DNA of 64,000 bases from Candidatus Sulfomarinibacteraceae bacterium (lineage in GTDB: Bacteria > Acidobacteriota > Thermoanaerobaculia > Thermoanaerobaculales > Sulfomarinibacteraceae). Both the position numbers and the translations under genes were made by a program. The notes under the pieces are model-generated. The model worked only from the letters and a program-made list of their open reading frames with translations, was not told the origin of the DNA and made no database searches. Position 1 is the first letter of the stretch; each line of letters opens with the position of its first letter. Shown in pieces: positions 132 through 60,344 of this stretch. The DNA is taken from assembly GCA_963796455.1 (NCBI GenBank), contig CAWCLO010000001.1:352001-416000 (forward strand), written 5' to 3'.

Positions 132-377
132 CAGCCGACTGGAGAAACCCTAGATCACGCAGATATCCAATCGGTCTCGGTAGAGGTATCGCCTGCGAGG
201 TCCCTACACCAGATTGCAGAGGGGATCGATCCTAGATGCTCGATCCTAGATGCTGGATCACTCTTGTCCAAGACAGAGTCTCGGATAGCGTGCAGGGACA
301 GCGGCAGAGAACGGTCTACAGCGTCAGCGAACAGGAGTCAGGGGCAGCGTTCAGCTATCAGCGACAGCGATCAGAAC

Positions 378-731
378 TCACTTCGTCGGGTTCAAAAGGC
401 GCCAGGTCATCGCACGGACCTGATCGAAGGCGTTCATCGCGTCGCGGGCGGCTGTCGCACTGATCGCCCCGGCGTGGGCAGAGAGGTCCAAGTGGCTGTC
501 GACTTCTTTGGCCGATGCGTAGGCGATTCTCCAGTGGTTCAACCGGTCTCTACCAACTCGACCGTGCCCTTCTGCCAGATTCGCAGGGACCGAACTTGCT
601 GACCGGATTACCTGATCGGCGATAGGCTTCAGCGGAGCCGGAACCCTCATCACGAGCTTGATCGCGATTCCTGCTGCTTCCAGGGCTTTCGAGTGGGCAA
701 AGAGGTTGGTGTTCGTGGCGGCTGAGGACAC
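378..731 (-). CDS. Four helix bundle protein (23S rRNA IVP / Avd-like family), ~117 aa
   Basis: Motifs DQVIRSASSVPANLAEG and IAYASAKEV; probable GTG start at 731 lies 5 nt after GGAGG (ORF track starts at 758). Confidence 0.85.
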   Translation of the reverse strand: MSSAATNTNLFAHSKALEAAGIAIKLVMRVPAPLKPIADQVIRSASSVPANLAEGHGRVGRDRLNHWRIAYASAKEVDSHLDLSAHAGAISATAARDAMNAFDQVRAMTWRLLNPTK

Positions 732-734
732 GGT

Positions 735-864
735 CACCTCCGGGTCGTTCATGCCCATTCCCGCAAGCCGGTGTGGCGGCCGATGTCAAGGATGCCCTGC
801 ACCCTGCCTGTCCTTGACATCGGCCGCCCACCGGCTACCCCTTCCTTGGAACGACCCGGAGGTG
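735..864 (-). promoter_or_regulatory. Nested hairpin sequestering the SD of the four-helix-bundle gene
   Basis: 735-750 pairs with 849-864 (16 bp perfect); 775-792 pairs with 811-828 (18 bp perfect); 766-773 pairs with 829-836. Confidence 0.65.
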
Positions 865-1122
865 GCCATTTCGCCGACTGGACTCCTGATCGCTGCCGCC
901 GCCGCCGCTGTCCTCTGTCGCTGTTCCCTGACGCTGTTGCCTGTCGCTGACGCTGGACACTGCCGCTGCCGCTGCGATTCGGGATCGGTATCGGGTACCT
1001 GCGAACCACGAACCGGACATGCCAACAACCAACCCGTAAACCACGTGTTGTCAGGTAGGTAACTTCATGACGATCCGTTTTGGACAACAGTGATCCTAGA
1101 TGCTGGATGCTCGATCCCGATC

Positions 1123-1181
1123 CCGAAAGGGGAAAGGGAGAAAGGGGGAAAGGGAGAAAGGGGGAAAGGGGGAAAGGGAGA
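1123..1181 (+). repeat. Purine octamer tandem repeat (RGAAAGGG)n
   Basis: About 7 degenerate copies. Confidence 0.85.
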
Positions 1182-1218
1182 ACGTTACAGGAAGCGCGGC
1201 TTCTGATAAGGGCAGGGT

Positions 1219-1306
1219 CTCCTCTGCTCCTCTGCTCCTCTGCTCCTCTGCTCCTCTGCTCCTCTGCTCCTCTGCTCCTCTGCTCCTCTGCTCCTCTGCT
1301 CCTCTG
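1219..1306 (+). repeat. (CTCCTCTG)11 perfect tandem repeat
   Basis: Direct count: 88 bp. Confidence 0.95.
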
Positions 1307-1310
1307 CCTA

Positions 1311-4043
1311 CTACGGCGTGACGACCAACAGCATCTTTTCCGGCACGAGATATTTCTTCGCCGCGGACTGGATCGCTTCTGGCGTGACCTCGGCGTAGGC
1401 TTCTTCGTCCACGGCCAAGGGCGAACCCGGACCCTCGAAGAGCGCACGGCCCACTCGGTAGGCGCGTGAAGCCGCGGACATTCCGCGCAGCATCCGGCTG
1501 CGGCGTTGCCGTGCCCGCCAACGATCGAGATCGGATTCGTCCATTGCTTCCGCTGCCAGTTCGCCGACCAGCTCCTCGAGAAGACCGGCCACCCTGTCAC
1601 TGTTTTCCGGCCGGGTCCCGACGGTGGCCGACAAGATCCAGGATCCATCCGGGTTGTTTCTGACACCGGCGCCAAGTCGATAGGCCAGACCCTCGCGTTC
1701 TCGAATCACCGCTGTCATCTTGTCCGACAACGAATCCATCGCCACCAGGGTCGCGACCCGGTCCTCTGGCTCAACTTCCGCGATCCGGCCCCACAGGAGC
1801 GTCACCTGCGGCGCCTCACCGATCTCGACGATCGGAGCGTCGGTTGCCGGTTCGGGTTCGGGGTAGGGTCCTCGCCGCGGTTCGGCACTCGGGCCACCCG
1901 AGAAGAAGTCCTTCACCATCTCGACTGTCTCCTCCGCCGAGACCGGCGAGGCGACGGTCACCACCAGACCGGCGGGCGCAAAGAAACCATCCGGCCAGGA
2001 ATTCCACGTTTTTCGGACAGCGTCGGCATCGACCGGTGGTGCATCCAGGGGGCCCGAAACCGGCTGGGCCAAAGGATGTCCGGTACCGAGCAGGGCGCCA
2101 AAGAAAAGCTGTTGAGCCTTTTCCGAACCCCGGTTATCGGCCTTACGGGCCGCCTGGTGCGAAGTCATCGCCCCACGCCACCCTTCGTTGTCCCAGGCCG
2201 GGACGCGGATCATCTCCGCCAACATCGCGAGGGCGATCTCGAGACCGGTCGCGGGCCCTTCGATGCGGACATAGGAAAAATCGGGCACGTGATACCGGTT
2301 GTCGAAGGGAATCATCGGCGAGTCAGCGACCTTGACCTCGAAACCCGCCCTCTCGACACGGCGGGCAAAATCGCCACTGTCCCCGAGGGCCGTCCCGGCT
2401 GACAACAGCCGGTGAACGAAATCAGAGATTCCCGGCGCACCATCCGGTTCGCGGAGCGTGCGGTCAGCCACCAGAAGATGAATACCGAAAACATCGCTGC
2501 CCACTTCGGGGAGAACACCCACCACCACACCGTTCTCAAGTGTGGTGACACGGCTCCCGAGCGGTCCGTTTTCAAGCATCGCGCTTCGTGCTGTCGTCTG
2601 AGTCGCCTGCGCTTCGGGGAGCGCCACCCGAACTTCCGGACCACCCTTGCCCAGCCAGGCAGCACGCGATCGCGAAGAGATGTTTGTCAACAATGCCGCT
2701 GCCGTGCTCCGAAGAACAGTCGCTTCAACCACCGGCGGCGAGACCGAATCAATCAGTGAGCCACGGGCTGACGCCAGAGCCTCGCCAAAGAAAACCGCCG
2801 CATAATGCGGCCGCTGATCGGAAAGTGCCCGCTCTCCCGCCCAGGTGCGCTGAATGATCGCGGCCTCCGTGTCGGTCGGGCCGGCTGACGCGCGATTGAG
2901 AGTTCCGAGGAGCAATGCCAGGAGGCTCTCGGGATCGGCCCCCATCTCCGCCTCGACCCGGATCTCGAGAAGATCGCGGGGTTCGCGGGGCTGCCGCGTG
3001 ACGCTGATTTCGCGGGCCAAGCCGGGACCGACAATCGCCGCAAAGGGGCCATTGGAGTCCGACAACCATCGCGCCAGAATCTCCACCTCGGTTCCGGACT
3101 CGGACAACGCATCGGGCACCGCGATCACGACCGCGAGGGTCCCGCCCGACGGCGCCTGACCGCGGCCGGACATTCCGTGGCCGCCGCCACCCATCCCCAT
3201 GGTGGGCATTCCTCCGCCGGCCGGGGCCTCGGGCGCCGTCATGGCCACCCACTCACCCCACCCGGACCACTCCAGTTGATCCGGACGCGCAGCGGCACGA
3301 TCAGATGGACCGAGAGCTGCAAAGGGTTTCAAGACAGCCTCGAGGCCACCGACATCGAGATCACCGGTGATCAGCAGCCGAAAACCGGAGGGCACATAAC
3401 GTTCGTTCCAATAGGCGACGACCTTGTCCCGCGGGGTGGCCCCCACCGAGCTTTCCGATCCACCGACCGGGTGTTCGAGAGGGGTTCCCTGCCAGAGAGC
3501 CTCACGCAACCGATCCTCTTTCAGGCCGTCCGGAGAAGCATGATCCTTGGCCAACTCCTCGAGAATGACTTTCTTTTCTTTTTCGTAGACCTCTGCTTCG
3601 ATGGTCGAACGGGTGAGCATGCCCACCATGAGCTCGGCCGCAGCCACCGCGTCGGCGCGGGGAATCAGAGCGAAATACACCGTCGTCTGTTCGCGGGTAA
3701 AGGCATTCATATAGGCCGAAAGCCTTTCAAAGGCCTCGGTCACACCCCGCTCGTCGAGTTCGTCAAAACCATCAAAGAGCAGATGTTCCAGGTAGTGCGA
3801 AAGACCGCCCATCCCTGCCGGCTCGTCCTGCGACCCGGCAGGGACAGCGACTGCCACCAGGACAGTGCCCGAACCCGGGCGGGGCCACAACAGGGCGCTC
3901 GCACCCGACGGCAACGTCCGTTCGACGGGGCCGGATGCCGCCTTTTCCTCTGCCGCCAGCAACGGCTGGGCAGGCACCAGGAGGGCCGCAAGAACCAAAA
4001 CACAGATCACAAGCACAACGGGACGAAACATGGGTGTATGCAT
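1311..4043 (-). CDS. M16 family (pitrilysin/insulinase) zinc peptidase, secreted
   Basis: Signal peptide; HYLEH (HxxEH) motif, NAFT, REREGLAY; second half lacks the motif; exact start uncertain. Confidence 0.9.
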   Translation of the reverse strand: MHTPMFRPVVLVICVLVLAALLVPAQPLLAAEEKAASGPVERTLPSGASALLWPRPGSGTVLVAVAVPAGSQDEPAGMGGLSHYLEHLLFDGFDELDERGVTEAFERLSAYMNAFTREQTTVYFALIPRADAVAAAELMVGMLTRSTIEAEVYEKEKKVILEELAKDHASPDGLKEDRLREALWQGTPLEHPVGGSESSVGATPRDKVVAYWNERYVPSGFRLLITGDLDVGGLEAVLKPFAALGPSDRAAARPDQLEWSGWGEWVAMTAPEAPAGGGMPTMGMGGGGHGMSGRGQAPSGGTLAVVIAVPDALSESGTEVEILARWLSDSNGPFAAIVGPGLAREISVTRQPREPRDLLEIRVEAEMGADPESLLALLLGTLNRASAGPTDTEAAIIQRTWAGERALSDQRPHYAAVFFGEALASARGSLIDSVSPPVVEATVLRSTAAALLTNISSRSRAAWLGKGGPEVRVALPEAQATQTTARSAMLENGPLGSRVTTLENGVVVGVLPEVGSDVFGIHLLVADRTLREPDGAPGISDFVHRLLSAGTALGDSGDFARRVERAGFEVKVADSPMIPFDNRYHVPDFSYVRIEGPATGLEIALAMLAEMIRVPAWDNEGWRGAMTSHQAARKADNRGSEKAQQLFFGALLGTGHPLAQPVSGPLDAPPVDADAVRKTWNSWPDGFFAPAGLVVTVASPVSAEETVEMVKDFFSGGPSAEPRRGPYPEPEPATDAPIVEIGEAPQVTLLWGRIAEVEPEDRVATLVAMDSLSDKMTAVIREREGLAYRLGAGVRNNPDGSWILSATVGTRPENSDRVAGLLEELVGELAAEAMDESDLDRWRARQRRSRMLRGMSAASRAYRVGRALFEGPGSPLAVDEEAYAEVTPEAIQSAAKKYLVPEKMLLVVTP

Positions 4044-4142
4044 GGGCGGGATTGTACCTGCACTCAATCAGTTTTGAGTTTCAAGTTTTGAATTTTGAGG
4101 TCTGAAGATCCTCCGCCCCCGCCCAATTACCTGAGTGGATCA

Positions 4143-4203
4143 AACTCCGAACTCCAAACTCCGAACTCCGAACTCCGAACTCCGAACTCCGAACTCCGAA
4201 CTC
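4143..4203 (+). repeat. (AACTCCG)n heptamer repeat, ~8-9 copies
   Basis: Direct; a second heptamer run (GTTTTGA-like) lies at 4070-4098. Confidence 0.9.
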
Positions 4204-4226
4204 GACAAATGGTACCCTTCGCTCCG

Positions 4227-4967
4227 ATGGTAGAAACAAGAGACCTTTCACTCAGCCTCCGCGCCTTCTTGAAAGCCTATCCCTGGCGGGTCATCGATCC
4301 GGTACCGTGCACGGTTCTCGGAAGGCCTCTGCCCGAGTGCAGGGTGGCACTGCTGTCCTCCGCCGGCTTCGTGGTTCCCGGCGAGGAGCCGTTCAGCGCC
4401 TCGATCAAAGGCGGCGATTTCAGCTATCGCGTGATCCCCGACGATATCGACGTACAGACGCTCGAAGAGCACCATCGTTCGGACAGCTTCTCTCACGACG
4501 GAATCGAAGCCGATCGCAACATGGGCTTGCCCCTCGACCGTTTGCACGAGCTGGCGGCAGACGGTGTCATCGGATCGGTGGCGCCCCGCCACATTTCGGT
4601 CATGGGCTCCATTACCGCACCCGGAAGATACATCCGCAAGACCCTTCCCGTGGTGGCGGACATTTTCGTGGAAGACCAGGTAGACGTCGCGCTGATGGTC
4701 CCTGTCTGACCGGTCTGCGTCCAGACGGTCGGTCTGGCTCAGTCAACAGTCGAGGACCGGGGAATCGCCACCGCCTCCATCACCATGCTCGAGGACATCA
4801 CCCGCAAGATCCAGCCCCCCCGCGCCCTGTCGGTCCCCTACCCCCTCGGTTTCCCACTCGGTGAGGCCGGCAACCACGCGCTCCAGACCTCGGTTCTTCG
4901 GGCGTTGCTCGCGCTGCTCGATCGCACCGATGCTCCAGTTCTCGAGCGTTGGTCGCCGAATGGCTGA
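4227..4967 (+). CDS. GrdB/PrdB-family (glycine/betaine/D-proline reductase selenoprotein B-like) selenoprotein, Sec at TGA 4707-4709
   Basis: ORFs 4095-4709 and 4785-4967 are in frame; readthrough gives VPV-U-PVC-VQTVGL (UxxC), then GIATASI and PPRALSVPYPLGFPLG, typical of the family; start 4209 or 4227. Confidence 0.85.
4721..4737 (+). promoter_or_regulatory. Putative bacterial SECIS hairpin
   Basis: CCAGAC-GGTCG-GTCTGG begins 11 nt after the UGA; loop starts with G. Confidence 0.65.
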
Positions 4968-5088
4968 TCGGAAACGTCTCTTCCATAAACACTTGCGACA
5001 TTTCGACAGCACCAATCAGGGACATTCGTCAGCACTGACGACTGAGGACTGTCGACTACTGGCGTGTAGAATCCGCGCAACAAGGGTC

Positions 5089-9047: not shown

Positions 9048-9051
9048 CGAA

Positions 9052-11885: not shown

Positions 11886-12109
11886 AACTCCACCATCGAG
11901 TCGGAGTACTCGCGCAACAACTCGAGAGTTTTGGCTGCTTCTTCTTCGTCCACCTGAGAGATCGCAAAGCCGGCGTGAACGAGCACGTAATCACCGACCT
12001 TGGCGTCGGGCACGTACATCGTCGAAATCTGCCGCCGCACACCGTCGATCTCGGCGACTCCGTCGAATTCGGTTCGTTCGACCAATACCATCGGGATGGC
12101 GAGACACAT
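11882..12109 (-). CDS. hypC: Hydrogenase chaperone HypC
   Basis: MCLAIP N-terminus, YVLVHAGFAI. Confidence 0.97.
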   Translation of the reverse strand: MCLAIPMVLVERTEFDGVAEIDGVRRQISTMYVPDAKVGDYVLVHAGFAISQVDEEEAAKTLELLREYSDSMVEL

Positions 12110-15746: not shown

Positions 15747-15766
15747 CTGGACAGTATACCGAGCAC

Positions 15767-15823
15767 GAAAGGGAGAAAGGGAGAAAGGGAGAAAGGGGGA
15801 AAGGGGGAAGGGGGGAAAGGGAG
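15767..15823 (+). repeat. Purine octamer repeat (GGGRGAAA)n
   Basis: About 7 copies, just upstream of hypA. Confidence 0.85.
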
Positions 15824-15916: not shown

Positions 15917-16546
15917 GGATCACTCTTGTCCAAGATAAAGTCTCAGACAGCGATCAGGGACGGCGGCAGCGATCAGCGTCAGCGACAGGGAACAGCGATC
16001 AGCGTTCAGCGTTCAGCGTCAGCGTCAGCGTCAGCGAACAGTAGTCAGCGTCACGTTTGATTGGTATGGAGCACTGAAATCAAGACTTTGGGTTGAGTAA
16101 ACGCCATGTCATGGCACGGACTTGATCGAAGGCCTTCGTCGCTTCACCGGCTCCGTTCGGGCTGATCGCCTCGGCGTGGGCGAGGAGCTGCAAGTGGTTG
16201 TCGACCTCTTTGGCCGAGGCGTAGGCGATTCTCCAGTGGTTCGACCGGTCTCTACCGACTCGGCCGCCCACCGGCTACCCCTTCCTTTGAACGATCCGGA
16301 GGTGGCCGCTTCGTCGCCTGTACTCCTGACCGCTGCCGCTGGATACTGACCGCCGTCCCTGACCGCTGTCTCTGTTCGCTGTTGCCTGTCGCTGCCGCTG
16401 GACACTGTCGCCGCCGCTGCAATTCGGACGCGGGCACGGGCACAGGCACGGGCAACCGCGAACCGGATATGCCGAAAACCAACCCATAAACCACGTGTTG
16501 TCATGTGGGAAACTCCAGGTGACGATCTATTTTGGACAGCGGTGAT
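15917..16546. mobile_element. TIR-bounded element copy B with 5'-deleted four-helix-bundle gene
   Basis: Ends GGATCACTCTTGTCCAAGATAAAG and CTATTTTGGACAGCGGTGAT; internal homology to copy A. Confidence 0.75.
16080..16271 (-). pseudogene. Truncated four-helix-bundle gene (C-terminal half)
   Basis: GRDRSNHWRIAYASAKEVD...WRLLNPKS is fused directly to the upstream hairpin arm. Confidence 0.8.
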
Positions 16547-16659: not shown

Positions 16660-16813
16660 GATGTCATCCTGAGGGGAGCCCCGCCTTGTCACGGCGCAGC
16701 CTGAAAGGCGAAGCCGGAAGGGGCGTAGTCGAAGGATCTATGGGATGAATGGAACACCTCAGTCCGCAGATCCTTCGACTTCGCGCCAGGGGCGCTTCGC
16801 TCAGGATGACATC
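16660..16813. repeat. Palindromic MITE-like element (GATGTCATCCTGAG...CTCAGGATGACATC)
   Basis: 14-bp terminal IR and inner GTCGAAGGATCT/AGATCCTTCGAC IR; second copy at 28652. Confidence 0.8.
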
Positions 16814-19679: not shown

Positions 19680-19788
19680 CCGATGATTGTGCCAGAGCGG
19701 TGGGGTGATGGATAGTGCAGATATTCGAGTTCTCGGATCGGATGATCGATCCTCGGCGCTGGATACTGGATGCTGGATGCTCGTTTCT

Positions 19789-20581
19789 GGATCACCCTTG
19801 TCCAAGACAGAGTCTCAGACAGCAACCGGGGACAGGGACGGGGAACGGCGGACAGCGTCAGCGAACGGTTGTCAGGGTCAGCGATCAGCTATCAACAGCA
19901 GCGACAGACAGCAGCGCTCACCTTTTCGGGTTCAAGAGCCGCCAGGTCATCGCACGGACCTGATCGAACGCCTTCATCGCTTCACTGGCTCCGTTCGGGC
20001 TGATCGCCCCGGTGTGGGCGAGGAGTTCCAAGTGGCTGTCGACCTCTTTGGCCGAGGCGTAGGCGATTCTCCAGTGGTTCAACCGGTCTCTACCGAAACG
20101 GCCGTGGCCTTCTGCAAGGTTCGCAGGGACTGAACTCGCCGATCGGACGACCTGATCGGCTATGGATTTCAGCGGAGCCGGAACCCTCATCACGAGTTTG
20201 ATCGCGATGCCTGCTGCTTCGAGTGCTTTCGAGTGGGCAACGAGGTTGGTGTTCGTGGCGGCGTTGGACATGGTCACCTCCGGGTCGTTCATGCCCATAC
20301 CCACAAGCCGGTGTGGTGGCCGATGTCAAGGATGCCCTGCACCCTGCCTGTCCTTGACATCGGCCGCCCACCGGCTACCCCTTCTGTTGAACGACCCGGT
20401 GGTGGCCACTTCGTCGCATGTACTCCTGATCGCTGCCGCTGAACACTGATCGCTGATTGCTGTTCTCTGTCGCTGCTTCCTGTCGCTGCCGCTGGACACT
20501 GTCGCTGTCGCTGATTCCTGTTGACTGCCCCTGCCCCTGCCTCTGAACGCTATCCGAGACCCTTTCTCGGACAAGAATGAT
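19789..20581. mobile_element. TIR-bounded element copy C (two 'left-type' ends) with intact four-helix-bundle gene
   Basis: Left end GGATCACCCTTGTCCAAGACAGAGTCTC; right end 20548-20581 is the reverse complement of the left-end module. Confidence 0.75.
19918..20271 (-). CDS. Four helix bundle protein, paralog of 378-731
   Basis: About 16 differences over 117 aa vs copy A; GGAGG-TGACC-ATG start. Confidence 0.87.
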   Translation of the reverse strand: MSNAATNTNLVAHSKALEAAGIAIKLVMRVPAPLKSIADQVVRSASSVPANLAEGHGRFGRDRLNHWRIAYASAKEVDSHLELLAHTGAISPNGASEAMKAFDQVRAMTWRLLNPKR

Positions 20582-20610
20582 GCCGCATCCAGTATCCGGC
20601 ATCCAGCATC

Positions 20611-38880: not shown

Positions 38881-39609
38881 ATCACTCTTGTCCAAAACAG
38901 TGTCTCGGACAGGGTTCAGGGACAGCGACGGAGAACGGTAGACAGCGGCAGCGAACAGTTGTCGGCGGCAGCGACAGGGTCCAGCGTCAGCGACAGGCAG
39001 CAGCGAACAGGGACAGGGAACAGCGGTCAGTGTTCAGTGTTCAGCGACGGAGCGCAGCGGCAGCAGTCTGGAATTCAGGCGACGCAGTGGCCACCTCCGG
39101 GTCGTTCAACAGAAGGGGTAGCCGGTGGGCGGCCGAGTTGGTAGAGACCGGTCGAATCACTGGTGAATCGCCTACGCCTGGGCGAAAGAGGTCGACAGCC
39201 ACTTGCAGCTCCTCGCCCACGCCGGGGCTATCAGCCCGAACGGAGCCAGTGAAGCGATGAATGCCTTCGATCAGGTCCGTGCCATGACGTGGCGTTTACT
39301 CAACCCAAAATCTTGATTTCAGGGCTTCATACCAGTCAAACATGACGCTGCCTCCTGTTCGCTGACGCTGAACACTGATCGCTGTTCGCTGTTCGCTGTC
39401 GCTGCTCACTGTCGCTGCTCACTGTCGCTGTCCCTGTTCGCTGTTGCCTGTCGCTGACGCTGGACACTGTCGCTGCCGCTGTAATTCGGACGCGGACGCG
39501 GACACGGACACGGGCAACCGAGAACCGGATATGCCAAAAATCAACCTGTGAACCTCGTGGTGTCAGGCGGGCAACTTCACCTGACAATCTGTTTTGGACA
39601 ACAGCGGTC
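38881..39609. mobile_element. TIR-bounded element copy D with inverted truncated cassette
   Basis: Ends ATCACTCTTGTCCAAAACAG and CTGTTTTGGACAACAGCGGT; cassette orientation is opposite to copy B. Confidence 0.75.
39125..39316 (+). pseudogene. Truncated four-helix-bundle gene with internal stop
   Basis: GRDRSNHW*IAYAWAKEVDSH...WRLLNPKS*. Confidence 0.8.
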
Positions 39610-39673: not shown

Positions 39674-40978
39674 CTACTTGATGCCGGCTGCTTCCTCGAG
39701 CATCGCGGTGGTCAGCGACTTCGGTCGTTCGATGGGATAACCGAGGGCGCGATCCCAGGTGATGTTGGTCAGCACGCCCAGCGCGCGGCCGATGCCGAAG
39801 AGGACCGTGTAGAAGTCCCACTCGGTGAGGCCGTAGTACCACTGGATGACGCCGGACTGCGCATCGACATTGGGCCACGGGTTCTTGGCCTTGCCCTGTT
39901 CTTCGAGCACACCGGGGGCGACCTGGTAGATCATGCTGATGAGCTTGAACAGCGGGTAGTCCGGAAGGTGCTTGAGGCAGAACTCACGCTGCGACTCGTA
40001 GCGCGGGTCGGTTTTGCGGAGCACCGCATGGCCGTAGCCCGGAATTACCTGACCGCTGTTGAGGGTGTCCCAGAGAGCTTTCTTGACGAGCTCTTCGGTG
40101 GGCTCGGCGCCGCCGAGGCTTTCCATGAACTTCATGGTCCAGCTCAGCACTTCCTGGTTGGCGAGGCCGTGGAGCGGGCCCGCGAGGCCATTGATGCCGG
40201 CCGACAGCGAGTAGTAGGCATCCGACAGCGCCGACGCCACCAGGTGGGTGGTGTGGGCGGAGACGTTCCCCGACTCGTGATCGGAGTGGAGGATGAAATA
40301 CATCCGTGCAACATCGTCGTACGGCGCGTCGATGCCCATCTGATGGGCGAAGTTGCCGCCCATGTCCAGATTCGGGTCCTCGGCGATCTGGTCGTCGTCT
40401 TTGTACTTGAGACGATAGATGAAGGCCGCCAGAACCGGCAGTTTGGCCATCAGGTTGCAGGAATCCTCGAACATCGGATCCCAGTAGTCCATCTTGGACA
40501 TGCCTTCGTTGTACTTCTTGACGAAGATCGATTCGCGCTGCATGGCGATGATACCGGCCGAGTACATGGTCATCGGGTGGGTGTCTTTCGGCATCGCGCG
40601 AAGGATGTCCTTCACATAGTCGGGCAGCTGGCGCCGGGTCTTGAAATCGGCGACCACTTCTTCGGCCTGCTCGTCGGTGGGGATCTCTGAGGTCATCAGA
40701 TAGTAGAAGAAGCCTTCGACGCTGGGGTACTCCTGGCCTTCAACCGCGGGCAGCGCTGCAAAGGTCTCCGGGATCGTGCGGCCCCTGAAACGAATGCCCT
40801 CGAAGGGGTCGAGATAGGACACGTCGGTCACCAGGCAACGAACTCCACGCGCGCCGCCGATCGCCTGGGCGATGGTGACATCCCAGATCTTGGTGTCGCC
40901 ATACTCTTTGAGCAGGCGCACCGTCCGCGGACGATGCTCTTCGATTTTCTTGTACAGGGTTTCCTTTAAAGTCGACAT
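39674..40978 (-). CDS. gltA: Citrate (Si)-synthase, eukaryote-like type
   Basis: HSDHESGNVSAH, GPLHGLANQE, GYGHAVLRKTDPR, NPWPNVDA. Confidence 0.95.
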   Translation of the reverse strand: MSTLKETLYKKIEEHRPRTVRLLKEYGDTKIWDVTIAQAIGGARGVRCLVTDVSYLDPFEGIRFRGRTIPETFAALPAVEGQEYPSVEGFFYYLMTSEIPTDEQAEEVVADFKTRRQLPDYVKDILRAMPKDTHPMTMYSAGIIAMQRESIFVKKYNEGMSKMDYWDPMFEDSCNLMAKLPVLAAFIYRLKYKDDDQIAEDPNLDMGGNFAHQMGIDAPYDDVARMYFILHSDHESGNVSAHTTHLVASALSDAYYSLSAGINGLAGPLHGLANQEVLSWTMKFMESLGGAEPTEELVKKALWDTLNSGQVIPGYGHAVLRKTDPRYESQREFCLKHLPDYPLFKLISMIYQVAPGVLEEQGKAKNPWPNVDAQSGVIQWYYGLTEWDFYTVLFGIGRALGVLTNITWDRALGYPIERPKSLTTAMLEEAAGIK

Positions 40979-41216
40979 CATGCCTCCCGTTTTTTTCCAG
41001 CCGGGAGAGCTGCCGCGCATTGATCTCGCCGCCTCTCGACCCGGTCATTTCACATCGCACGAGGGTTCATTCTGTCTGGTACGAAAAATCCCGAAAAGGT
41101 TTCCCGTGGACAAGAGTATAGAGCTTGTGAAGAAAAGTGACAAGCTATATTTCAGTTGATCAGACGCTCACTTTTCGGCCAAAGCCGATCAATGAATGAA
41201 CGCTCATTCATTGAAA

Positions 41217-48815: not shown

Positions 48816-48843
48816 CGCTGAGAACAGCAGCTGAACGCAACCA

Positions 48844-48873
48844 CGGGGTCGGGCAACCGGCCCCGTTTTTTTT
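48844..48873 (+). terminator. Terminator between convergent genes
   Basis: CGGGGTCGG/CCGGCCCCG stem plus T run. Confidence 0.75.
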
Positions 48874-51800: not shown

Positions 51801-52034
51801 ATCAAACTCCGGTTCCTCGGACAGATCGATGGCGGTCTGATCGTCTCCCCCACCGCTGATGATCGCGGTGTGGTCGCCGCTTGCCGCCAAGCCGTCCACC
51901 GGCGTGTGCTCGTCATCCGATGCGGAGTCGAGCGTGATCCGGCTCGATGTCCTCTCACCGATCTTGGAACCACAGTGCACACACCGGTCACGATGAGGGG
52001 CGTTTTCTTTACCGCAGGATGGACAGTTCAGCAA
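48872..52034 (-). pseudogene. Zn-ribbon + Ser/Thr kinase + TM + TPR protein with frameshift near 49401 (or sequencing error)
   Basis: CPSC..CVHC, GFGGMG, HRDLKPAN, DFG, YMAPE; TPRs continue in another frame after AEAVD. Confidence 0.85.
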
Positions 52035-52539
52035 TTGAATACCACCAGTGGATCTCTCCCGACATTCTCCACTTCGACAGCCCTCCGAGGCGCCGTATCT
52101 ACATGAGACAACCACGCACTGCCTGTGATGCTTCCTCGATGAGGATGATTTCTTTCGCACCACATGACGGACAGTTCAGCACGGTTTCACCACCTCGACT
52201 ACATTTTCACGGTTACGTTGCGGCATGCCACAGATAACCACCGAGTTGACCGCAAGCTTCCTGGTTCGCGATATTATCTCGTACACCCAGATGATAGCGT
52301 GGACGCGATCTCAATTACAAATACAGACAGGGGCCTGAAGCTTGGATCTTGATACGTCAAAATTCCCGACCTGTGAAACCTCACGGGTCGGGAGTGGAAT
52401 ACCTCCTCGACTGGCTGATCAATCGGCCGGTCCAGAGTGTCGAACCACCCCTCGCACCGGCCCTGGACTTACAACCACTGTCGGGCACATCACGGATCAG
52501 GTCCGCCGAAAATACCCCATCGCCATCGTTGGCGGGACG

Positions 52540-53280
52540 CTACTCCCCAAGCACACAGCGAATGCCGGGCGCGCATACCGTCGGAATGCCTTCGACAATG
52601 AAACCGCAACAGAACGCGTGACCTTCGACCTCGTTCCAACAGGGATCGCTACAGCACTCCCCATCGGGCGCCCACGGCAGGCAACACGCCGAGTCGCACG
52701 GTTCCGTACAGTCGTCACACGGAATCACATGAAACAGGGTCGAGTCTGACCAGGAATCTCCGGACCTGGGCGACGAAAGATCAGCCGTGACTCGATGAGC
52801 GCCGGGTCCCTCGGCAAAGTCCATCGCCAGCGCGATCGTAAACGACGTGACCGGCAGCAGATCACCCGGCATCGGCGACACCACCGACCACTCAAAGCGC
52901 GAAGGATCGACGCTCCAGCAGTCAACAGTTTTGACACGCCAGCGAAGTTTCGTTCCTCTCCTCGTTTGAATCCTTTTTCTCTTGAGATCGACAACGCAGC
53001 TCCCCATTTCTTCAAAGACGGTCATTTCCTCGAATCCCTGGTCCCAGAAGATTTCCACACGAGCCGGGCCCTTTGCCGAGAACTTCCGATTCATCTTGAA
53101 GAGAGCGGTTACCGGAACATCCTGGAGGTCGGTAAGGACCTCATCCATCACAGGCTCGATGATTTGAACTTTGGCTTTGATCTGTCGGCCGCACTTTTCC
53201 GGAGCCTGCTCGATTTCACCCGCGACGGTGAAACCCGAAATCGCAACAACCAAAACCACAATGAACGCAGATTTCGACAT
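52540..53280 (-). CDS. Secreted hypothetical protein with Cys-rich C-terminus
   Basis: Signal peptide; CDDCTEPCDSACC...CC...C...CC...C...C. Confidence 0.65.
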   Translation of the reverse strand: MSKSAFIVVLVVAISGFTVAGEIEQAPEKCGRQIKAKVQIIEPVMDEVLTDLQDVPVTALFKMNRKFSAKGPARVEIFWDQGFEEMTVFEEMGSCVVDLKRKRIQTRRGTKLRWRVKTVDCWSVDPSRFEWSVVSPMPGDLLPVTSFTIALAMDFAEGPGAHRVTADLSSPRSGDSWSDSTLFHVIPCDDCTEPCDSACCLPWAPDGECCSDPCWNEVEGHAFCCGFIVEGIPTVCAPGIRCVLGE

Positions 53281-53373
53281 CACTCAATCTCCCTTCATTC
53301 AAGATCTCAAAAAACCTTCGCAGACACTCGATACTTTCCCGCCCCTTTCCGGGCACCTTCAAATCGTCTCCCG

Positions 53374-56300
53374 CTAGTGCACAACCCAGGACCAGCGGTC
53401 GGCGAGCCCGGTTTCGAAATGCCCTTTGAAAAACAGTCGCTTCCCACCGCAACCGGTAGCGTGCAGGGTCGAAATTTCGTTCGCAGAAAGTGCCCGATTG
53501 TAGATCGCGAGGTCGTCAATAAGCCCATCGATGACATCCCAACCGTCATGCCCACCGATGTAAACAGTGGGCATCCCCGGAGGCAATGCCTGATCAACGA
53601 CGACCGCAGTAGCATCCGGTACACCGTCGATAAACCCGGTCATTACATCGCTTGTGGCGTCGTAGGTGATTGCCACGTGGTGCCAACTTTGGGCCGAAAG
53701 CTGCAGCTCGCCGATAAAAACCGCTCCGTAGTCGTACCAGCACAGCCGACCATCGTTCAGAAAGAACCCGTGTTCCGGATCGGCATAAATAGTCGCCCAC
53801 GGCGGCGTGTTGGTTCCCTGATAGGAGACCCAGCCCTCGACCGTGAAGCTGTCGGCAACGGGGAAATTGGTCAATGCGACCTGATCGTCAACGGCATCAA
53901 ACGAAAACGCCTTCCCCGACACGCCGCTCTCGAACGCAACCCCGTTGTCGAGGGTGCAGGAAGACACTCCAACCACGTCATCGCCCGAACCATTGGCGGG
54001 CCAATACGCAACCATGCCGGGCGGCAAGCCCGCTATCGGGCCACCAAAGACCCCTGCCACCACGCCCCTCGTTCGATTCGCCTCGGTACCGAGGTCCGAG
54101 CACGTGAAGGATCCCGTACCGGTATTGATACAAAGTTGGTTTCTCTCGTCCGTGTTGGCGAGAACCACGTCGAGGTCGTTGTCGCCGTCGATGTCTGTCA
54201 ACGCGACCCCACTGCTCGCGTTGACATCGGGCGAAAGGTCACCGCACGAAAACGAAGCTGTCCCATCGTTCAAGCAAAGGCGATTGGTCTGTCCCTCGTT
54301 CGCGATCACGATATCGAGTCCGCCCGAACCGTCGACATCCCCTATCGCCAGCCCTCGGCTGAAATCATCTCTCGAGCCCAGATCAGCGCAACTGAAAACT
54401 GCAGAACCGTCGTTCAAACACACACGGTTCCGAGACCACTCATTCGAAAAGACGATATCGAGACCGTCTTGATCATCGAGGTCGGCCACGACAACCCGAA
54501 GGCTCCTGTCAGCATCCGTACCGATATCGCCACAGGAGAACCCGCCGCTTCCATCGTTCAGGCACAATCGGTTGACTCCGCCCGACTCAGCTGGGTGTCC
54601 CCAGTTTGCGAATACGAGATCGGCCCCATTGATTCCGTCAATGTCCGCACGCGCAACACCCACATTGCCGTCTGCGACCTCGCTGATGTCGCTGCACGAG
54701 AAGACGCCGGCACCTTCATTGAGACAAATCCGGTCCCTTTGCCGGTTATTGGCGAATGCCGCGTCGAGATCATCGTCGCCGTCGAAGTCCCAGAGAACGA
54801 CACCGCGCGACATGTTTTCGTCAGGACTCACGTTCCGACAGGTAAATGATCCTGCACCGTCGTTGAGGCACACACGATTCGTCTCGCCATCACCGTTCGC
54901 CAGGCCCTGGTTCGCGATCACCATGTCGATCCCATTGCCGCAATCAATCGGACCAAGGGCAATCACCCAGCTTTCCCGAGCGTCTGTGCTGATATCCGTG
55001 CAGCTCAACCCTCCGACACCATCGTTGAGACAGATCCGGTTCTCCTGGTATTCATTGGCAAAGACGAGATCGACAATTTTGGGGTCGTAGGAGTGATCGC
55101 GATTGAAGGTCGCTATGCAGCTCGTATCAACCACCATCTCGGCCGTCGCATCGTCACAGTCAGAATCACCCGACCATCCGGCAAAAACCGAATCGCTGTC
55201 CGGCCGCGCTGTGAGCTTGACCTGTGTTCCGGCATCGTACGGTTCCACACAATCCGATCCGCAATCAATCCCCGGCGGAGTGGTGGTCACTGCGCCGCCG
55301 CCGTCCCCCGCGAGAGTGACCGTCAGAGTGAACGATTCAAGAGTGGTGACGGTGAAGGTATCTGAAACACCTCCGATCGTGAGAACCAAATCGGTTGCGA
55401 TGAGGTTTTCGGACGACGAGGTCTGACGCACGCGCACTTCCTGGCCATCACCGGCGGTTCCGGAATCCGACGACCACCCGCCGCCAGCCACCGAGTACTC
55501 ACAGGACGAACTCGTGCAGGATTCGATGGCAATCGACACCGCCGTGTCGATTCCGGCAACGGTGACAGCATCCGACTCCACCGTCGAGTCCCGCGGCACG
55601 TCAACCCGGTCGTTGAACACAAAACCATCGGGGGTCGCGTCACGGAGCACACATTTGCCTGAGCAGCCCTGCTGGTAGAGGGCATAGATCTCGTGCCCGG
55701 TCAGCACGCCGTCGTAGACAGAAAGTTCGTCGACCTTGCCATCCAACACATCCCAGCCATCGTGACCGCCAATGCTGACGTATGGCAAACCCGGGGGAAG
55801 TGCACTGCCGGCAAAGGTGGACGTACCGTCTGCCTCGCCATCAACGTATCCGGTAAAGGTGCTCGTATTCGAGTCGTATGTGATCGCAATGTGGTGCCAC
55901 TCCTGGGCTGGTATGGCGATATCGCCGACGAATTGATTCCCGAACTCGTACCAGTTGACCCTTCGATCAAGCAGAAAAAGCCCGTGATCGCCATCGGCAT
56001 AGATGGTTGCCCACGGCGAATCGTTGGTGCCGACGTAGTACACCCAGGCTTCGATTGTGAAATTGTCCGCTGCGGGAAAGCTCGTGAAGGTTACCTGGTC
56101 GTTCATACCGTCGAAGCTGAAGGCCTGTCCCGCCTTGCCGTCCGCGAAGGTCGCACCGCCCTCGAGCACACCCTCGTAGCTGCCGACCACATCCTTCGCC
56201 GATAAGTCGGCGGCCCAGTAGGCAACGAGATTGGCCGGAGCGCAGCTCGTTGTGTTCCCGAAGACCCCGGTCACAACACCCCGGGTGTGGTTGGTGTCCG

Positions 56301-57405
56301 TGCTGACATTGCTGCACAAAAATGAACCGGATCCGTCGTTCAGGCAGACCTGGTTCTCCTGGTCCAGGTTCGCGAACAAAGCATCGAGATCACCATCCTC
56401 ATCGACATCCGCGAGTGCGACACCGGTGCTCGCGTTGACGTCCGGACTGGCATCGACACAACCCAGACCTCCCGATCCGTTATTGAGGCAGATCTCGTTC
56501 TTGACGCCGATATTGGCGAAGAGGACATCGGGACCGTTGGCTCCATCGAGGTCTGCGATCGCCAATCCGTAGCTGAAGTCCTCCCTGGCGCTGACATCGC
56601 CGCACGTGAAAGCTCCCAAACCATTGTTGAGGCAGATCCTGTTCTTCTCCCCATCGGTCGAGATCACAGCGTCAATGCCGTTCGTACCATCGATATCATC
56701 GAGAGCGACCCGCAGGCTGGAAAAAGTGTCCGCGCTGACGTCGCTGCACGAAAAGGAACCAGATCCGCTGTTGAGGCAGACTCGATCGGCTTCGCCGTAG
56801 TTGGCGAAGACCAGATCGAGACCATTGACACCGTCAAGATCGGCGGCGGCCACACCGACAGAGCTGTTGGTGTCGTCGTTGAGATCGACGCAGGTGAAGC
56901 TCGCCTTCCCGTCATTGAAGCACAACCGGTTTTCCTGACCGTTGTTCGCCGTGGCGGCGTCGAGATCGCCATCGTCATCAAAATCGCCGAGAACAACACC
57001 TCGGGTTGCGCCGACATCACCGTTGACCGCGGCGCAGGTGAGGGAGCCGGTGCCATCATTGAGACAGATTTCGTTCGCGGGGCCCGCGTTCGCCACAAAG
57101 ATGTCCAAGCCGCTGCCGCAGTCGAGCGGTCCGACGGCGGCCGTCCAGGTCGACAACTCGGACAAACTCAGGTCGGAGCAGGCGAAGTCACCTGCGCCAT
57201 CACCAACGCAGATCCTGTTCGTCTGCCCGTCGTTCCCGAAAACGGCTTCAACGTGAGGCGTCTGAATCACAACTTTTTGCCGGTCGGTGTTTTTTGACTG
57301 ATTGCCGGCGCTACCGGTCACCCCGCGTTCCTCGGCACCGAGAGCAACCCACGGGCATAGCAGCACCAGCACCAACACCAAAAAGTCGAAGCACCTTCTG
57401 ATCAT
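53374..57405 (-). CDS. Secreted FG-GAP/VCBS repeat + LamG protein (duplicated module)
   Basis: DxDGDxDLD repeats with paired Cys; two LamG blocks (WHHxAITYD); InlB-B-like repeat; SD upstream of MIRR. Confidence 0.88.
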   Translation of the reverse strand: MIRRCFDFLVLVLVLLCPWVALGAEERGVTGSAGNQSKNTDRQKVVIQTPHVEAVFGNDGQTNRICVGDGAGDFACSDLSLSELSTWTAAVGPLDCGSGLDIFVANAGPANEICLNDGTGSLTCAAVNGDVGATRGVVLGDFDDDGDLDAATANNGQENRLCFNDGKASFTCVDLNDDTNSSVGVAAADLDGVNGLDLVFANYGEADRVCLNSGSGSFSCSDVSADTFSSLRVALDDIDGTNGIDAVISTDGEKNRICLNNGLGAFTCGDVSAREDFSYGLAIADLDGANGPDVLFANIGVKNEICLNNGSGGLGCVDASPDVNASTGVALADVDEDGDLDALFANLDQENQVCLNDGSGSFLCSNVSTDTNHTRGVVTGVFGNTTSCAPANLVAYWAADLSAKDVVGSYEGVLEGGATFADGKAGQAFSFDGMNDQVTFTSFPAADNFTIEAWVYYVGTNDSPWATIYADGDHGLFLLDRRVNWYEFGNQFVGDIAIPAQEWHHIAITYDSNTSTFTGYVDGEADGTSTFAGSALPPGLPYVSIGGHDGWDVLDGKVDELSVYDGVLTGHEIYALYQQGCSGKCVLRDATPDGFVFNDRVDVPRDSTVESDAVTVAGIDTAVSIAIESCTSSSCEYSVAGGGWSSDSGTAGDGQEVRVRQTSSSENLIATDLVLTIGGVSDTFTVTTLESFTLTVTLAGDGGGAVTTTPPGIDCGSDCVEPYDAGTQVKLTARPDSDSVFAGWSGDSDCDDATAEMVVDTSCIATFNRDHSYDPKIVDLVFANEYQENRICLNDGVGGLSCTDISTDARESWVIALGPIDCGNGIDMVIANQGLANGDGETNRVCLNDGAGSFTCRNVSPDENMSRGVVLWDFDGDDDLDAAFANNRQRDRICLNEGAGVFSCSDISEVADGNVGVARADIDGINGADLVFANWGHPAESGGVNRLCLNDGSGGFSCGDIGTDADRSLRVVVADLDDQDGLDIVFSNEWSRNRVCLNDGSAVFSCADLGSRDDFSRGLAIGDVDGSGGLDIVIANEGQTNRLCLNDGTASFSCGDLSPDVNASSGVALTDIDGDNDLDVVLANTDERNQLCINTGTGSFTCSDLGTEANRTRGVVAGVFGGPIAGLPPGMVAYWPANGSGDDVVGVSSCTLDNGVAFESGVSGKAFSFDAVDDQVALTNFPVADSFTVEGWVSYQGTNTPPWATIYADPEHGFFLNDGRLCWYDYGAVFIGELQLSAQSWHHVAITYDATSDVMTGFIDGVPDATAVVVDQALPPGMPTVYIGGHDGWDVIDGLIDDLAIYNRALSANEISTLHATGCGGKRLFFKGHFETGLADRWSWVVH

Positions 57406-58483
57406 TTCCCCACCTCCCCGAGTCGTCCCGAAGTTCATTATTGATTCCATAGGTGACACCACCTGAGTAATGGGAATCGCCAAACTGTGACAAGAAAGAC
57501 CAAAACCGCGTGTCGCGGATCAAATTTGCGAGCAGGGACTTGTTTGAACCGAATTCGAGGAGGATGCCGGTAATTGAAATACCTGAAAATTCCAGGTGCG
57601 ACACCTCGGAATCTGAGACGCAGACAAGATGTGGGCCGAAATAGCCCTGATCTGCCGCGATGCTTGTTATCAGGACATTCTCTCGATCGTCTGCATACAC
57701 GAGCGTGTCGGCAAGATCCGCGACAATCCCGAAACCGGCTCTATCCACCGTCACCCCTTCCGCATCGATATTGAGCGCGGTGCCGGCGAACACCTCCGGA
57801 CACACCATTTCCTGATCGAAGACGACGGTTTCGCCCGGGCGTGGTGAGGACCGTTCGACAGCGTGGCGTTGCTGAGGTGGCTGGACGGACAATCAAAAAA
57901 ACGACCGTGCTTCGACCGAACGGACCTGTATGGACCTCACGGAACATGAAGAACTTCCTCGTCAAGACCATCTGACAGAATGGAGAAAAAACTTCGTATT
58001 GTGAAGGGTCAGAGACTTATGATGATGTCTTTGCGTTGAGGCGACTATATCGGGGAAAAGTGGGTCATCAACACGAAAGATCATGAACCAAGACGAACCC
58101 TGCGAACGGAACCTTACGAGGAACACCGGCATTCAGAATCCCCAGCCCCTGAGAAAAAGAAAAAATAACCCGCAGCGATATTCTGCGGACGATCGAGAGC
58201 AAGAATCTGTCTCAAAAACCGCGGGCTCACCACTAGCAATACACCTTCCGGGGCAATTCCATACTCAAACTTTTTCCGATAATCTGAATGTGGGTCCAAA
58301 TTATAGAATTGTCAACTAAAATACATTTGAGCAGTAACGATTCTCAATGCAAGTCTTAAACTTGATCACACATGCAATTTTCATGTTGTAGCGTGTCCGT
58401 ACAGCCGACCGATCACAAGAGGCCATCAAGCGATCGGGAGAGGTACAGTTGACATCTGCGGTCCCACAACCAAGAATCGTCCG

Positions 58484-59845
58484 ATGCAGGAAATTGCCGA
58501 CAACCGGCGGCCGACCCAGATGATGCTCGCGATTGCGGATGCCGTCGTCCTGGTGGCCTCCGGTTGTGCCGCGACCATGATTCGTTTTGGCAGCGGTCTG
58601 TTCGATCGCGAAATCGGGCGGTTGCTCGAGCACCCGGGCTTTATCGCCTACGCGATTCTCGCTCAGCTTGCGCTGGCCATCACCTTCGATCTCTACCGAC
58701 CGGAGAGTTGGCGCACCCGCGACTATGTCCTCGCCCGGATTCTGGCCCTGGGTGCATGCCTGGCAATGGCTCTCGCGCTCGGGACCTATCTCGTGCCGCA
58801 ATGGCGTTTCGGCCGCGGTCTCCTCGCCCTGACCCTGGCGCTCTCGCTACCGGCACAGACGATCATCCGCTTGCTCTGGCTCCGACTGACTTCTCGACCG
58901 CCGTCGCGAAGGGCAGTCGTCATCGGTGACGGACCGATCGTCGGGGCTCTCGAACAGGTCCTTGCAAACCGGCCGTCGCCGCCGTTTCAGATCGTCCGCC
59001 ATCTGCCGGCGCCAAACGGTACGGAAGGCAACCCCTTCGGAGAGGAGGACATCGACGACGCCGACCTCGTGATCGTGGCCCAACTGGCCGATGACGAGGC
59101 CGCCAAACGTCTTGCGGCGCTCAATTTCCGGGGCACCACGGTCATCGATTCAGCCGGCGCCTATGCGGCACTCACCGGCCGGATTCCCGTCCGCCAGGTC
59201 GATTCACGCTGGTTCATCGCGACCGGTGATTTTTCGTCGCTCGCGACCACCGGTTTTCGCTACGTTCAGCGTCTGCTCGATGTGGCTGCCGCCACCGTGT
59301 TGCTCATTCTGACCTCGCCGTTGATTCTGCTCGCCGCTTTCAGCACCATCGTCACGGATGGCTTGCCGGTCATCTATCAACAGCAACGTCTGGGCCTCTT
59401 CGGGCGGCCTTTCACCCTCTTCAAGTTGCGCACGATGCGCCGGTCCGCCGAGGACGACGGCCCCCGGTTTTCGAGCGACAACGATGCGCGAGTGCTGCCG
59501 ATCGGCCGCTTGCTCCGGCGATGGCGGATCGACGAACTTCCCCAACTCGTCAACATTCTGCGCGGCGAGATGAGCCTGGTCGGGCCCCGACCGGAACGAC
59601 CCGTCCTCGCCGAAAAACTGGAACGGGAGATTCCGTTCTACGCCTTCCGGTATTCGGTTCGACCCGGTCTCACCGGTTGGGCCCAGGTGCAGTTCCCCTA
59701 CTGCTCGGATCCCGAGGAACACCAGGTCAAACTCGAGTTCGATCTCTATTCCCTGCGCCACCAGGGACCGGCGATGTACGTGATCGTACTGCTGAGGACC
59801 CTCGGTGTTTTGATCTTCCCACCGGAGAAGAAGCGCGCAGGATAG
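58484..59845 (+). CDS. Polyprenyl glycosylphosphotransferase (WcaJ-like sugar transferase)
   Basis: FKLRTM, RIDELPQL, MSLVGPRPE, PGLTGWAQV. Confidence 0.93.
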   Translation: MQEIADNRRPTQMMLAIADAVVLVASGCAATMIRFGSGLFDREIGRLLEHPGFIAYAILAQLALAITFDLYRPESWRTRDYVLARILALGACLAMALALGTYLVPQWRFGRGLLALTLALSLPAQTIIRLLWLRLTSRPPSRRAVVIGDGPIVGALEQVLANRPSPPFQIVRHLPAPNGTEGNPFGEEDIDDADLVIVAQLADDEAAKRLAALNFRGTTVIDSAGAYAALTGRIPVRQVDSRWFIATGDFSSLATTGFRYVQRLLDVAAATVLLILTSPLILLAAFSTIVTDGLPVIYQQQRLGLFGRPFTLFKLRTMRRSAEDDGPRFSSDNDARVLPIGRLLRRWRIDELPQLVNILRGEMSLVGPRPERPVLAEKLEREIPFYAFRYSVRPGLTGWAQVQFPYCSDPEEHQVKLEFDLYSLRHQGPAMYVIVLLRTLGVLIFPPEKKRAG

Positions 59846-59883
59846 CCTGATCCTGGATGCTCGATACTGGATGCTCGATGCTC

Positions 59884-60344
59884 GATCACTCTTGTCCAAG
59901 ACAGAGTCTCGGATAGCGCGCAGGGACAGCGGCAGAGAACGGTCGACGGAGTCAGCGGCAGCGTTCAGTGTTCAGGTTCAGCGATCAGCGGCCGGGACAG
60001 TGAACAGCACTCATTTCTTCGGGGCTCCGGCCTTGGTGGTGCGGCCGTCTCGGCCGCACGGTGTGCAGGCGAGACGCCTACACCACAACGGCTGTTCCTT
60101 ATGTTGAAAGACTCGGAGGTGGCCATACCGCCGCATGAACTCCAGACTGCTGCCGCTGATCGCTGAACACTGATCCCTGCTCACTGTCGCTGCCGCTGCC
60201 GCTGGACACTGTCGCTGACGCTGCAATTCGGGATCGGGTACGGGTACGGGCCAATCGCGAACCGGATATGCCAAAAACCAACCCGTAAACCTCGTGTTGT
60301 CAGGCGGGTAACTTCATGACAATCTGTGTTGGACAGCTGTGATC
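59884..60344. mobile_element. TIR-bounded element copy E without the gene, carrying a REP-like doublet
   Basis: Left end almost identical to copy A; right end CTGTGTTGGACAGCTGTGATC. Confidence 0.75.

Follow-up and report, generated by a model that had tools for sequence, protein, structure and literature searches.

A transposase-less, IS4-ended cassette family with a selected four-helix-bundle passenger gene in a Candidatus Sulfomarinibacteraceae genome

The window considered here is a stretch of 64,000 nucleotides from a Candidatus Sulfomarinibacteraceae bacterium (assembly GCA_963796455.1, contig CAWCLO010000001.1, positions 352,001 to 416,000). Within it lie five copies, A to E, of a dispersed element bounded by inverted repeats, two of which carry an intact gene for a four-helix-bundle protein. 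All five are intergenic, have CAGCGN arms on the left and NCGCTG arms on the right, and stand where a first-pass annotation of the sequence had placed them, with limits corrected by a few bp. That annotation had also reported no mobility enzyme in the window. In agreement, no transposase, integrase/recombinase, or reverse-transcriptase family was matched among the 43 host open reading frames (ORFs) scanned in the window (two sets, of 13 and 30, with two ORFs common to both; several ORFs are without a family). Family scans of the copies found no transposase inside the element.

Copy A (259..1092, minus strand) is a complete cassette. Its left-type (259-276) and right-type (1075-1092) ends match those of autonomous insertion sequences (ISs) of the IS4 family. 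The left 9-bp target duplication (250..258, plus strand) is inside a GATGCTG-type heptamer array, and its right counterpart at 1093-1101 is alike at 7/9 positions. The intact gene (378..758, minus strand) belongs to TIGR02436/PF05635; the spacing from the Shine-Dalgarno (SD) sequence makes a start at 728, behind GGAGG, more likely. A predicted hairpin of about 154 nt (723..876, minus strand) pairs over the SD sequence and start codon. The segment that the first-pass annotation called the conserved right module (1010..1092, minus strand) is the subterminal right end of the IS4 parent together with its inverted repeat.

Copy B (15921..16544, minus strand) is of the half-gene type and has a perfect 9-bp duplication, ATGCTGGAT, at both sides. 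Its 3' half gene (16080..16274, minus strand) is joined to the left hairpin arm at a 7-bp microhomology common to nine copies. Copy C (19793..20579, minus strand) sits behind a terminator-like hairpin between the genes for a hydrogenase large subunit and a maturation protease (hybC-hybD). It carries an intact gene (19918..20304, minus strand; likely start 20271) and a predicted SD- and start-covering hairpin (20263..20416, minus strand), and both of its ends are left-type.

Copy D (38883..39606, plus strand) is again of the half-gene type, and the junction of its 3' half gene (39130..39316, plus strand) is identical to that of B. Its interior is inverted between the CAGCG arms; interiors are inverted relative to the ends in 3/72 paired copies overall. 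Copy E (59887..60341, minus strand) is gene-less and precedes a thiamine pyrophosphate (TPP) riboswitch. A doublet of repetitive extragenic palindromic (REP) sequences at 60033..60088 (strand not assigned) stands in place of the gene. The flanking duplications match at 7/9 positions in A, 9/9 in B, 5/9 in C, 3/9 in D, and 4/9 in E, so that only B is perfect. The earlier description of the cargo (intact in A and C, half in B and D, a REP-like doublet in E) was accurate, as was that of the arms. The right module, said to be in every copy, is missing from C. The inverted repeats are real, at 18 bp rather than ~22 bp, and the leading GAT is the end of the 9-bp target duplication.

The window copies belong to a large family. 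BLASTN with the five copies gave 245 merged loci, 2.3% of the 5.02-Mb assembly. A typed end or gene fragment is present at 195 of the 245; free REP matches or scraps account for many of the remaining 50. The five repeats are members of a family of about 200 transposase-less elements in this genome. End-like 21-mers number 222 in the genome and 2 in a base-shuffled genome, which excludes chance as the source of the repeat family. Similar DNA is present in 15/18 same-genus genomes, and the protein subfamily occurs in 57/76 genomes of the family and 2/42 others in the order. The end sequence is also found in records labelled Ca. Sulfomarinibacteraceae or Holophagae, with the gene at about 66-80% identity in 4/5 such genomes.

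The 245 loci comprise 59 intact ORFs, 6 full-length broken genes, 9 half genes, 22 other fragments, and 149 gene-less loci. All nine half genes have a single common junction, and B and D are one deletion at the 7-bp microhomology. REP-type junctions gave 70 matches, one of which looks like a free REP, leaving about 69 copies of the E type with identical junctions. In E, the REP doublet has replaced the gene. The first-pass annotation spoke of swappable cargo; what is present is one cargo and two amplified deletion types with fixed junctions (9 half-gene and about 69 REP copies). Two losses of the cargo were each amplified afterwards; for IS4-type movement, then, the protein is dispensable in cis. 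By eye, the doublet of E resembles the palindromes on either side of two Y1 transposase genes in other parts of the genome; these are like genes of REP-associated tyrosine transposases (RAYTs). A near-identical pair of Y1 genes (G000 C4:1144044 and C4:1147021, in L001 and L002) is separated by ~3 kb; short inverted repeats bound each of the two, and the pair flanks another gene.

The terminal repeat is CACT(C/G)(T/C)TGTCCAA(G/A)ACAG. From an alignment of 261 typed ends, of which 168 are of left type and 93 of right type, 72 pairs that face inward were obtained. The 9-bp flanks agree perfectly in 21/72 pairs and with at most one mismatch in 38/72; none of 300 shuffles gave more than 15. Among pairs not in heptamer arrays, at most one mismatch is seen in 9/32 (no more than 3 when shuffled). 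Among the 72 pairs, duplication lengths of 3-8 and 10-15 gave no signal, and lengths of 2 and 16 echo the 7-bp period. A 2-bp AT target duplication was rejected, its bases being the outer bases of the 9-bp duplication. The duplications are mostly located in heptamer arrays, and the target consensus is the symmetric ATSCWGSAT. A 9-mer of this type abuts 139/261 ends and recurs every 7 bp within heptamer arrays, and the element adjoins 44/75 GATGCTG-type arrays.

Empty sites were compared for C and E. The orthologous site of C, the hybC-hybD spacer, is empty in 4/4 relatives having both flanks. That of E is empty in 3/4 relatives; the fourth (G008) has an independent cassette of the same gene, with ISL3-type ends and an 8-bp duplication. 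An ortholog of D's left flank was not found in five genomes. The heptamer arrays predate insertion, because the hybC-hybD spacer of the four relatives consists of inverted heptamer arrays without the element. Two copies are 98.4% alike over 863 bp, their full length, at different sites, a likeness that argues for fairly recent movement, and in another pair identity begins at the right-type end.

The hybC-hybD spacer (window 19730-19792 and 20580-20610) has an inverted heptamer-array stem in all five genomes, with varying repeat units: GATGCTG in this genome and G006, ATTTCGG in G005 and G014, and ATGCAGG in G008. It is as if arrays had been replaced or re-homogenised in each lineage. The element-bearing spacers contain more repeat families (window 1124-1190, 1220-1307, 15769-15823, and 16660-16740), namely arrays of GGGAGAAA and of CTCCTCTG, and palindromes of a GTCATCCTGAG...GAAGGATC family.

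The parentage of the ends is apparent from other genomes. The exact right-end 18-mer occurs in at least 110 genome stretches, 80 with full flanks. Among the stretches listed, in at least 10 a further end stands at a distance of 1371-1422 bp, with an ORF of a single related family in between. Two of these ORFs were tested, and both are IS4 transposases (NF033592 at 249 and 260 bits, cut-off 115) with DUF4372 and DDE_Tnp_1 domains. These autonomous relatives are 1.37-1.42 kb long and have a YREK-type motif, and 3/10 of those listed show an 8-9/9 target duplication. The right module aligns gap-free with their subterminal right ends, and the same-genus genome G017 has a complete autonomous IS4 element with an identical right end. 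The first-pass annotation had taken the family as transposase-free and possibly undescribed; the ends are those of autonomous IS4-family elements, a match of the kind that the annotation itself had named as refuting, and autonomous copies are present in other genomes though none was found in this assembly.

The ends, 9-bp repeat, and size also fit the IS4Sa features given in Table 1 of PMC2266710 (CA------T ends; 9-bp repeat, range 8-10 bp). The element ends are of the IS4 family and IS4Sa-like, the subgroup being assigned by end, size, and duplication features and not by a transposase tree. In other genomes, elements of 310-410 bp with identical IS4 ends and 8-9/9 duplications form a family of miniature transposable elements with inverted repeats (MITEs), seen in stretches L009, L010, L011, L014, L016, L018, L046, L053, L073, L075, and L084. 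The sole DDE_Tnp_1 gene of this genome (contig C7; DUF772 and DDE, below all NCBIfam cut-offs) was rejected as mobiliser; its ends differ. When end pairs spaced 0.95-6 kb were sought with a weight matrix, 24 came up, mostly ends of neighbouring copies.

Proteins of TIGR02436 and PF05635 are common and, to our knowledge, without a known function. Genes A and C match TIGR02436 at 57-59 bits (cut-off 24) and also PF05635, which agrees with the earlier assignment to the family found in 23S rRNA intervening sequences (IVSs) and resembling Avd, the accessory protein of diversity-generating retroelements (DGRs). The protein is basic (pI 10.1). The closest solved structure is XCC0516 (PDB 2GSC; best PDB match, E 0.006), a homopentamer according to the available portion of PMC4990558. 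Four distant TIGR02436 genes of this genome (G000 C4:1278079, C1:983116, C9:2705, and C10:733016) lie between inverted arrays of differing short repeats, without IS ends.

Across 58 ORFs (1653 pairs), mean synonymous divergence (dS) is 0.33 and mean nonsynonymous divergence (dN) is 0.047, with a dN/dS of 0.14. The corresponding polymorphism ratio (pN/pS) is 0.09-0.12 for variants in at least three copies and 0.55 for private variants (Fisher 4e-9). Ends are eroded in 33/59 intact copies. In the 32 copies without an end or module, private changes are 31 synonymous and 43 nonsynonymous (P 0.001-0.009 against neutrality). By these substitution counts, the gene is under purifying selection, even in copies without ends.

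The copies are mosaic. Four-gamete violations are 60-84%, and linkage has faded after some tens of bases (P 0.001 by permutation), a pattern to which repeat mutation may contribute. The duplications have decayed by about 8.6% per side (22/26 copies; four with unrelated flanks were dropped). Private change is 0.6-1.7% at fourfold sites of the gene, and change in the end module is 3.0%. That duplication decay far exceeds private synonymous change suggests conversion after insertion; array slippage may inflate the decay figure.

The start of the gene is covered by a predicted hairpin of about 155 nt. GGAGG is 5 bases before the second Met codon, and both are paired. In 19 copies taken from seven genomes, 97% of the cells are paired; 10/48 pairs changed on both sides, with 0/500 shuffles as high. 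Mismatches per 16 in the hairpin arms average 0.26 in gene-bearing and 1.12 in gene-less copies. The two classes differed in one of two control modules as well (P 0.003), so age accounts for part of the contrast. TTGAC, on both hairpin arms, would suit divergent sigma-70 promoters; no -10 consensus was seen on the gene side by eye, no scan having been made. In G078 (C128:11013-11850; L174, L189), two head-to-head four-helix-bundle genes have one symmetric hairpin, each taking SD and ATG from one arm; the hairpin may stem from an inverted duplication of the 5' end of the gene.

Placement was counted against 3809 host genes from a home-made caller. Only 3/186 copies examined overlap a called gene, and 183/186 overlap none. 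Convergent spacers hold 66/186 copies, compared with 585/3799 spacers genome-wide (P about 1e-11). Within tandem spacers, intact genes run against the flow in 18 cases and with it in 7 (P 0.04), and the other copies are 22 against and 32 with (Fisher 0.015 for intact versus other).

Neighbouring features of the window include a citrate synthase of eukaryote-like type at 39674-41020 (NF007128 at 752 bits; TIGR01793 at 573 bits, below cut-off). The TPP riboswitch (60444-60541), the only Rfam match in the window, is 100 bp downstream of E and before a TonB-dependent receptor gene.

Relatives carry the same gene on other vehicles. In G006, all 7/7 copies read are the identical IS4-ended cassette type. 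Copies in G003, G008, G014, G017, G064, G065, and G069 have ends of the GG(C/T)TC(A/G)TCC type, in some cases only upstream. In G008, G017, and G031, elements with an ISL3 transposase are bounded by similar ends. These ISL3 calls were made by reading sequences, the loose ISL3 pattern giving false matches in GC-rich DNA. Homology between IS4- and ISL3-ended copies spans base 93 to 724 of 862. An autonomous ISL3 element of G017 (L148:948-3186) has an ISL3-ended four-helix-bundle cassette ~150 bp away, both of them within AACGTT-type arrays.

Module matches number 32 in G047, 22 in G091, 37 in G094, and 9 in G046. No inverted-repeat pair with a duplication was found in these four genomes among 24 copies examined by script and 23 by eye; the script missed ends visible by eye in G064, G069, and 3/4 copies in G065, and several loci are cut by contig ends. 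The short-repeat arrays of the 23 by-eye copies often run directly into host genes. As far as sequence can tell, the same gene module is on unrelated ends in some relatives and is multi-copy with no inverted ends seen in others. A quick tree of 77 proteins over 123 columns (8/59 of the genome's own copies plus the stop-free copies of relatives; one weak match omitted) places the 15 IS4-ended genes in one group (support 81); together with ISL3-ended genes of another genus, this group falls in a clade with support 99. This topology suggests an end swap and transfer.

We consider it probable that the element is a transposase-less IS4-ended cassette, likely moved in trans, whose passenger is a selected module of hairpin and four-helix-bundle gene that likely predates the ends. 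It is very probable that an IS4 transposase supplied in trans moves the element by cut and paste, and the source would be an IS4 copy now lost or unassembled. Somewhat more tentatively, ends swapped at a short-repeat tract would have turned an ISL3-ended form into the IS4 form. With similar reserve, the hairpin would shut translation when host transcripts read through the copy, by analogy with IS10 and IS50, which guard against read-through translation.

The role of the protein is a more speculative matter. It is possible, by analogy with XCC0516 and Avd, that the basic protein would form a ring binding nucleic acid, most likely its own hairpin RNA. Such a ring would serve persistence of the module and not host metabolism. 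Missense subunits would poison the shared oligomer and null copies would be tolerated, so that deletions abound yet missense changes are purged. The gene is likely a self-serving passenger that changes vehicles between lineages.

Several observations weigh against parts of this account. The cognate transposase was not found in this assembly (tblastn best E 0.29; 90.5% complete) and was found in only 1/30 relatives by protein search. Only 2/25 genus genomes pass the IS4 cut-off, and the element of one, G031, is without such ends. The 9-bp duplication has more than one mismatch in 34/72 paired copies, a clear duplication is missing in 7/10 listed autonomous elements, and the flanks of the autonomous element in G017 are not duplicated. 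Private changes look neutral in the 26 copies with both ends (8 synonymous, 23 nonsynonymous), and when these are set against the end-less copies the difference falls short of significance (P 0.13). The tree, besides being quick and of 123 columns, is midpoint-rooted. Hairpin covariation among these related sequences is compatible with either an RNA or a DNA palindrome under repair and cannot tell them apart.

A different reading, which we regard as unlikely, treats the hairpin-plus-gene module as the replicator. The module would spread into short-tandem-repeat arrays by a recombination-like route promoted by the protein, with IS ends added later and optional. G047, G091, G094, and G046, with their many module matches and no inverted ends with duplication seen, are what it would lead one to expect, and all except G047 branch deeper in the midpoint-rooted tree. 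The four distant TIGR02436 genes between short-repeat arrays are in keeping with it. Private synonymous change far below both duplication decay and end-module change also looks as if interiors had been refreshed after insertion. The apparent lack of ends is weakened by the visible ends that the script missed, by the loci cut at contig ends, and by the erosion of old ends in this genome. Some copies in G046 and G094 have other upstream modules in common. The gene-less types multiplied well, and we know of no catalytic role for this fold; both points count against a protein-driven replicator. It is similarly doubtful that the module is a selfish element with dozens of copies in a genome, selected and recombining, that needs no transposase to spread through short-tandem-repeat arrays and was picked up by ISL3 and then IS4 ends, with ORF-bearing 23S IVSs as members that landed in rRNA and the Avd-like protein as a maintenance or propagation factor.

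A passenger beneficial to the host, through dosage or an RNA-chaperone effect, kept by host selection and homogenised by gene conversion, is rather improbable. It would account for the selection that persists in immobilised copies and for the presence of the subfamily across most genomes of the family. However, some close relatives have no copy and others dozens, and each of about 60 redundant copies should be nearly selection-free. The start codon buried in the hairpin and the avoidance of co-orientation with flanking genes (7 same, 18 opposite) are also at odds with a gene expressed for its host.

The first-pass annotation proposed an IVS-like element whose transcript could fold end-to-end. 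The sense strand of copy A is indeed predicted to do so (z -7.8), and the protein family is that of 23S IVS ORFs as far as described in the available text of PMC4990558. Excision from transcripts by RNase III via the end-to-end stem, a reading that rests on this predicted fold, is nevertheless very unlikely. Inverted ends fold by construction. Nearly all copies are outside called genes, and for the 66/186 between convergent genes excision rescues nothing. No gene copy was found at rRNA primer sites on contig C10. RNA contigs of relatives yielded no interpretable joints, and nothing in the present data points to excision from RNA; the one run with 0.13 of the words, its contigs mostly <95% alike, is uninformative on expression.

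The remaining two readings have almost no room. That the element is a retroelement working with a DGR-type reverse transcriptase, its protein serving as Avd, is a reading that draws on the resemblance of PF05635 to Avd noted in the accessible part of PMC10053308, and it is largely refuted by the 9-bp duplication at inverted ends, which is the mark of a DDE transposase, by the lack of adenine bias among gene variants, and by the lack of an RVT_1 match in the genome (incomplete assembly; a control matched in 3/14). A REPIN-like element (REP doublet forming hairpins) moved by a RAYT is extremely unlikely: the genome has six Y1_Tnp genes and E holds a REP doublet, but the Y1 genes are flanked by their own palindromes and not by these ends, and the REP is internal to one derivative class with fixed junctions that also has the 9-bp duplication (8-9/9 in 13/25 copies).

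The IS4-ended cassette is best compared with mobile insertion cassettes (MICs). As defined in the consulted section of PMC3913671, these have IS ends, a passenger gene replacing the transposase, and movement in trans. MIC231 of Bacillus cereus, with ends of the IS231 subgroup of IS4, and the mic elements with qnrD or qnrS2 have in common with the present family IS4-family inverted ends, a target duplication, a passenger in place of the transposase, and movement in trans, the last being probable here. In contrast to MIC231, the ends are IS4Sa-like, chromosomal copies number about 200, and the gene is intact in 59 of them. The passenger also differs in having no known host function, in recombining between copies, and in riding ISL3 ends in relatives. 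IS4Sa itself (NF033592; DUF4372 and DDE_Tnp_1) has the same CA------T ends and 9-bp duplication; here no transposase is inside the element. Among IS-derived MITEs, the gene-less 430-460 bp class is a plain MITE, and the family differs in its coding, selected founder form.

The 23S IVS ORFs (e.g., Coxiella S23p and those of Leptospira; PF05635/TIGR02436; XCC0516) have the protein family in common with the cassette. A stem-wrapped gene with poor access for translation, as here, is described for them in the available sections of PMC4990558. Unlike them, the cassette is intergenic and bounded by IS ends and a duplication. Avd is a structural relative of PF05635 in the part of PMC10053308 available; here there is no reverse transcriptase and no adenine-biased change (template and variable repeats were not searched for). 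PF05635-type genes are scattered in cas loci according to the relevant part of PMC3936711, which fits a dispersing gene. By testable criteria, the element is a MIC or MITE and not an IVS, DGR, or REPIN; it is not an IVS because it is not in rRNA. No published account of such a cassette was found in full-text literature covering few subscription journals and excluding supplements.

The excerpted discussion in PMC4990558 leaves two standing hypotheses for the origin of ORF-bearing rRNA IVSs, a transposition remnant and a mobile element with a mobility ORF. Here, the gene is on a defined cassette; the transposase family can be named, the target has a consensus, and natural deletions provide controls, which makes both ideas testable. 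It also poses a puzzle of its own, being dispensable in cis and present in about 60 copies, yet purged of missense changes. The ends themselves are of a known type. What stands out is a selected passenger that changes transposon ends between lineages.

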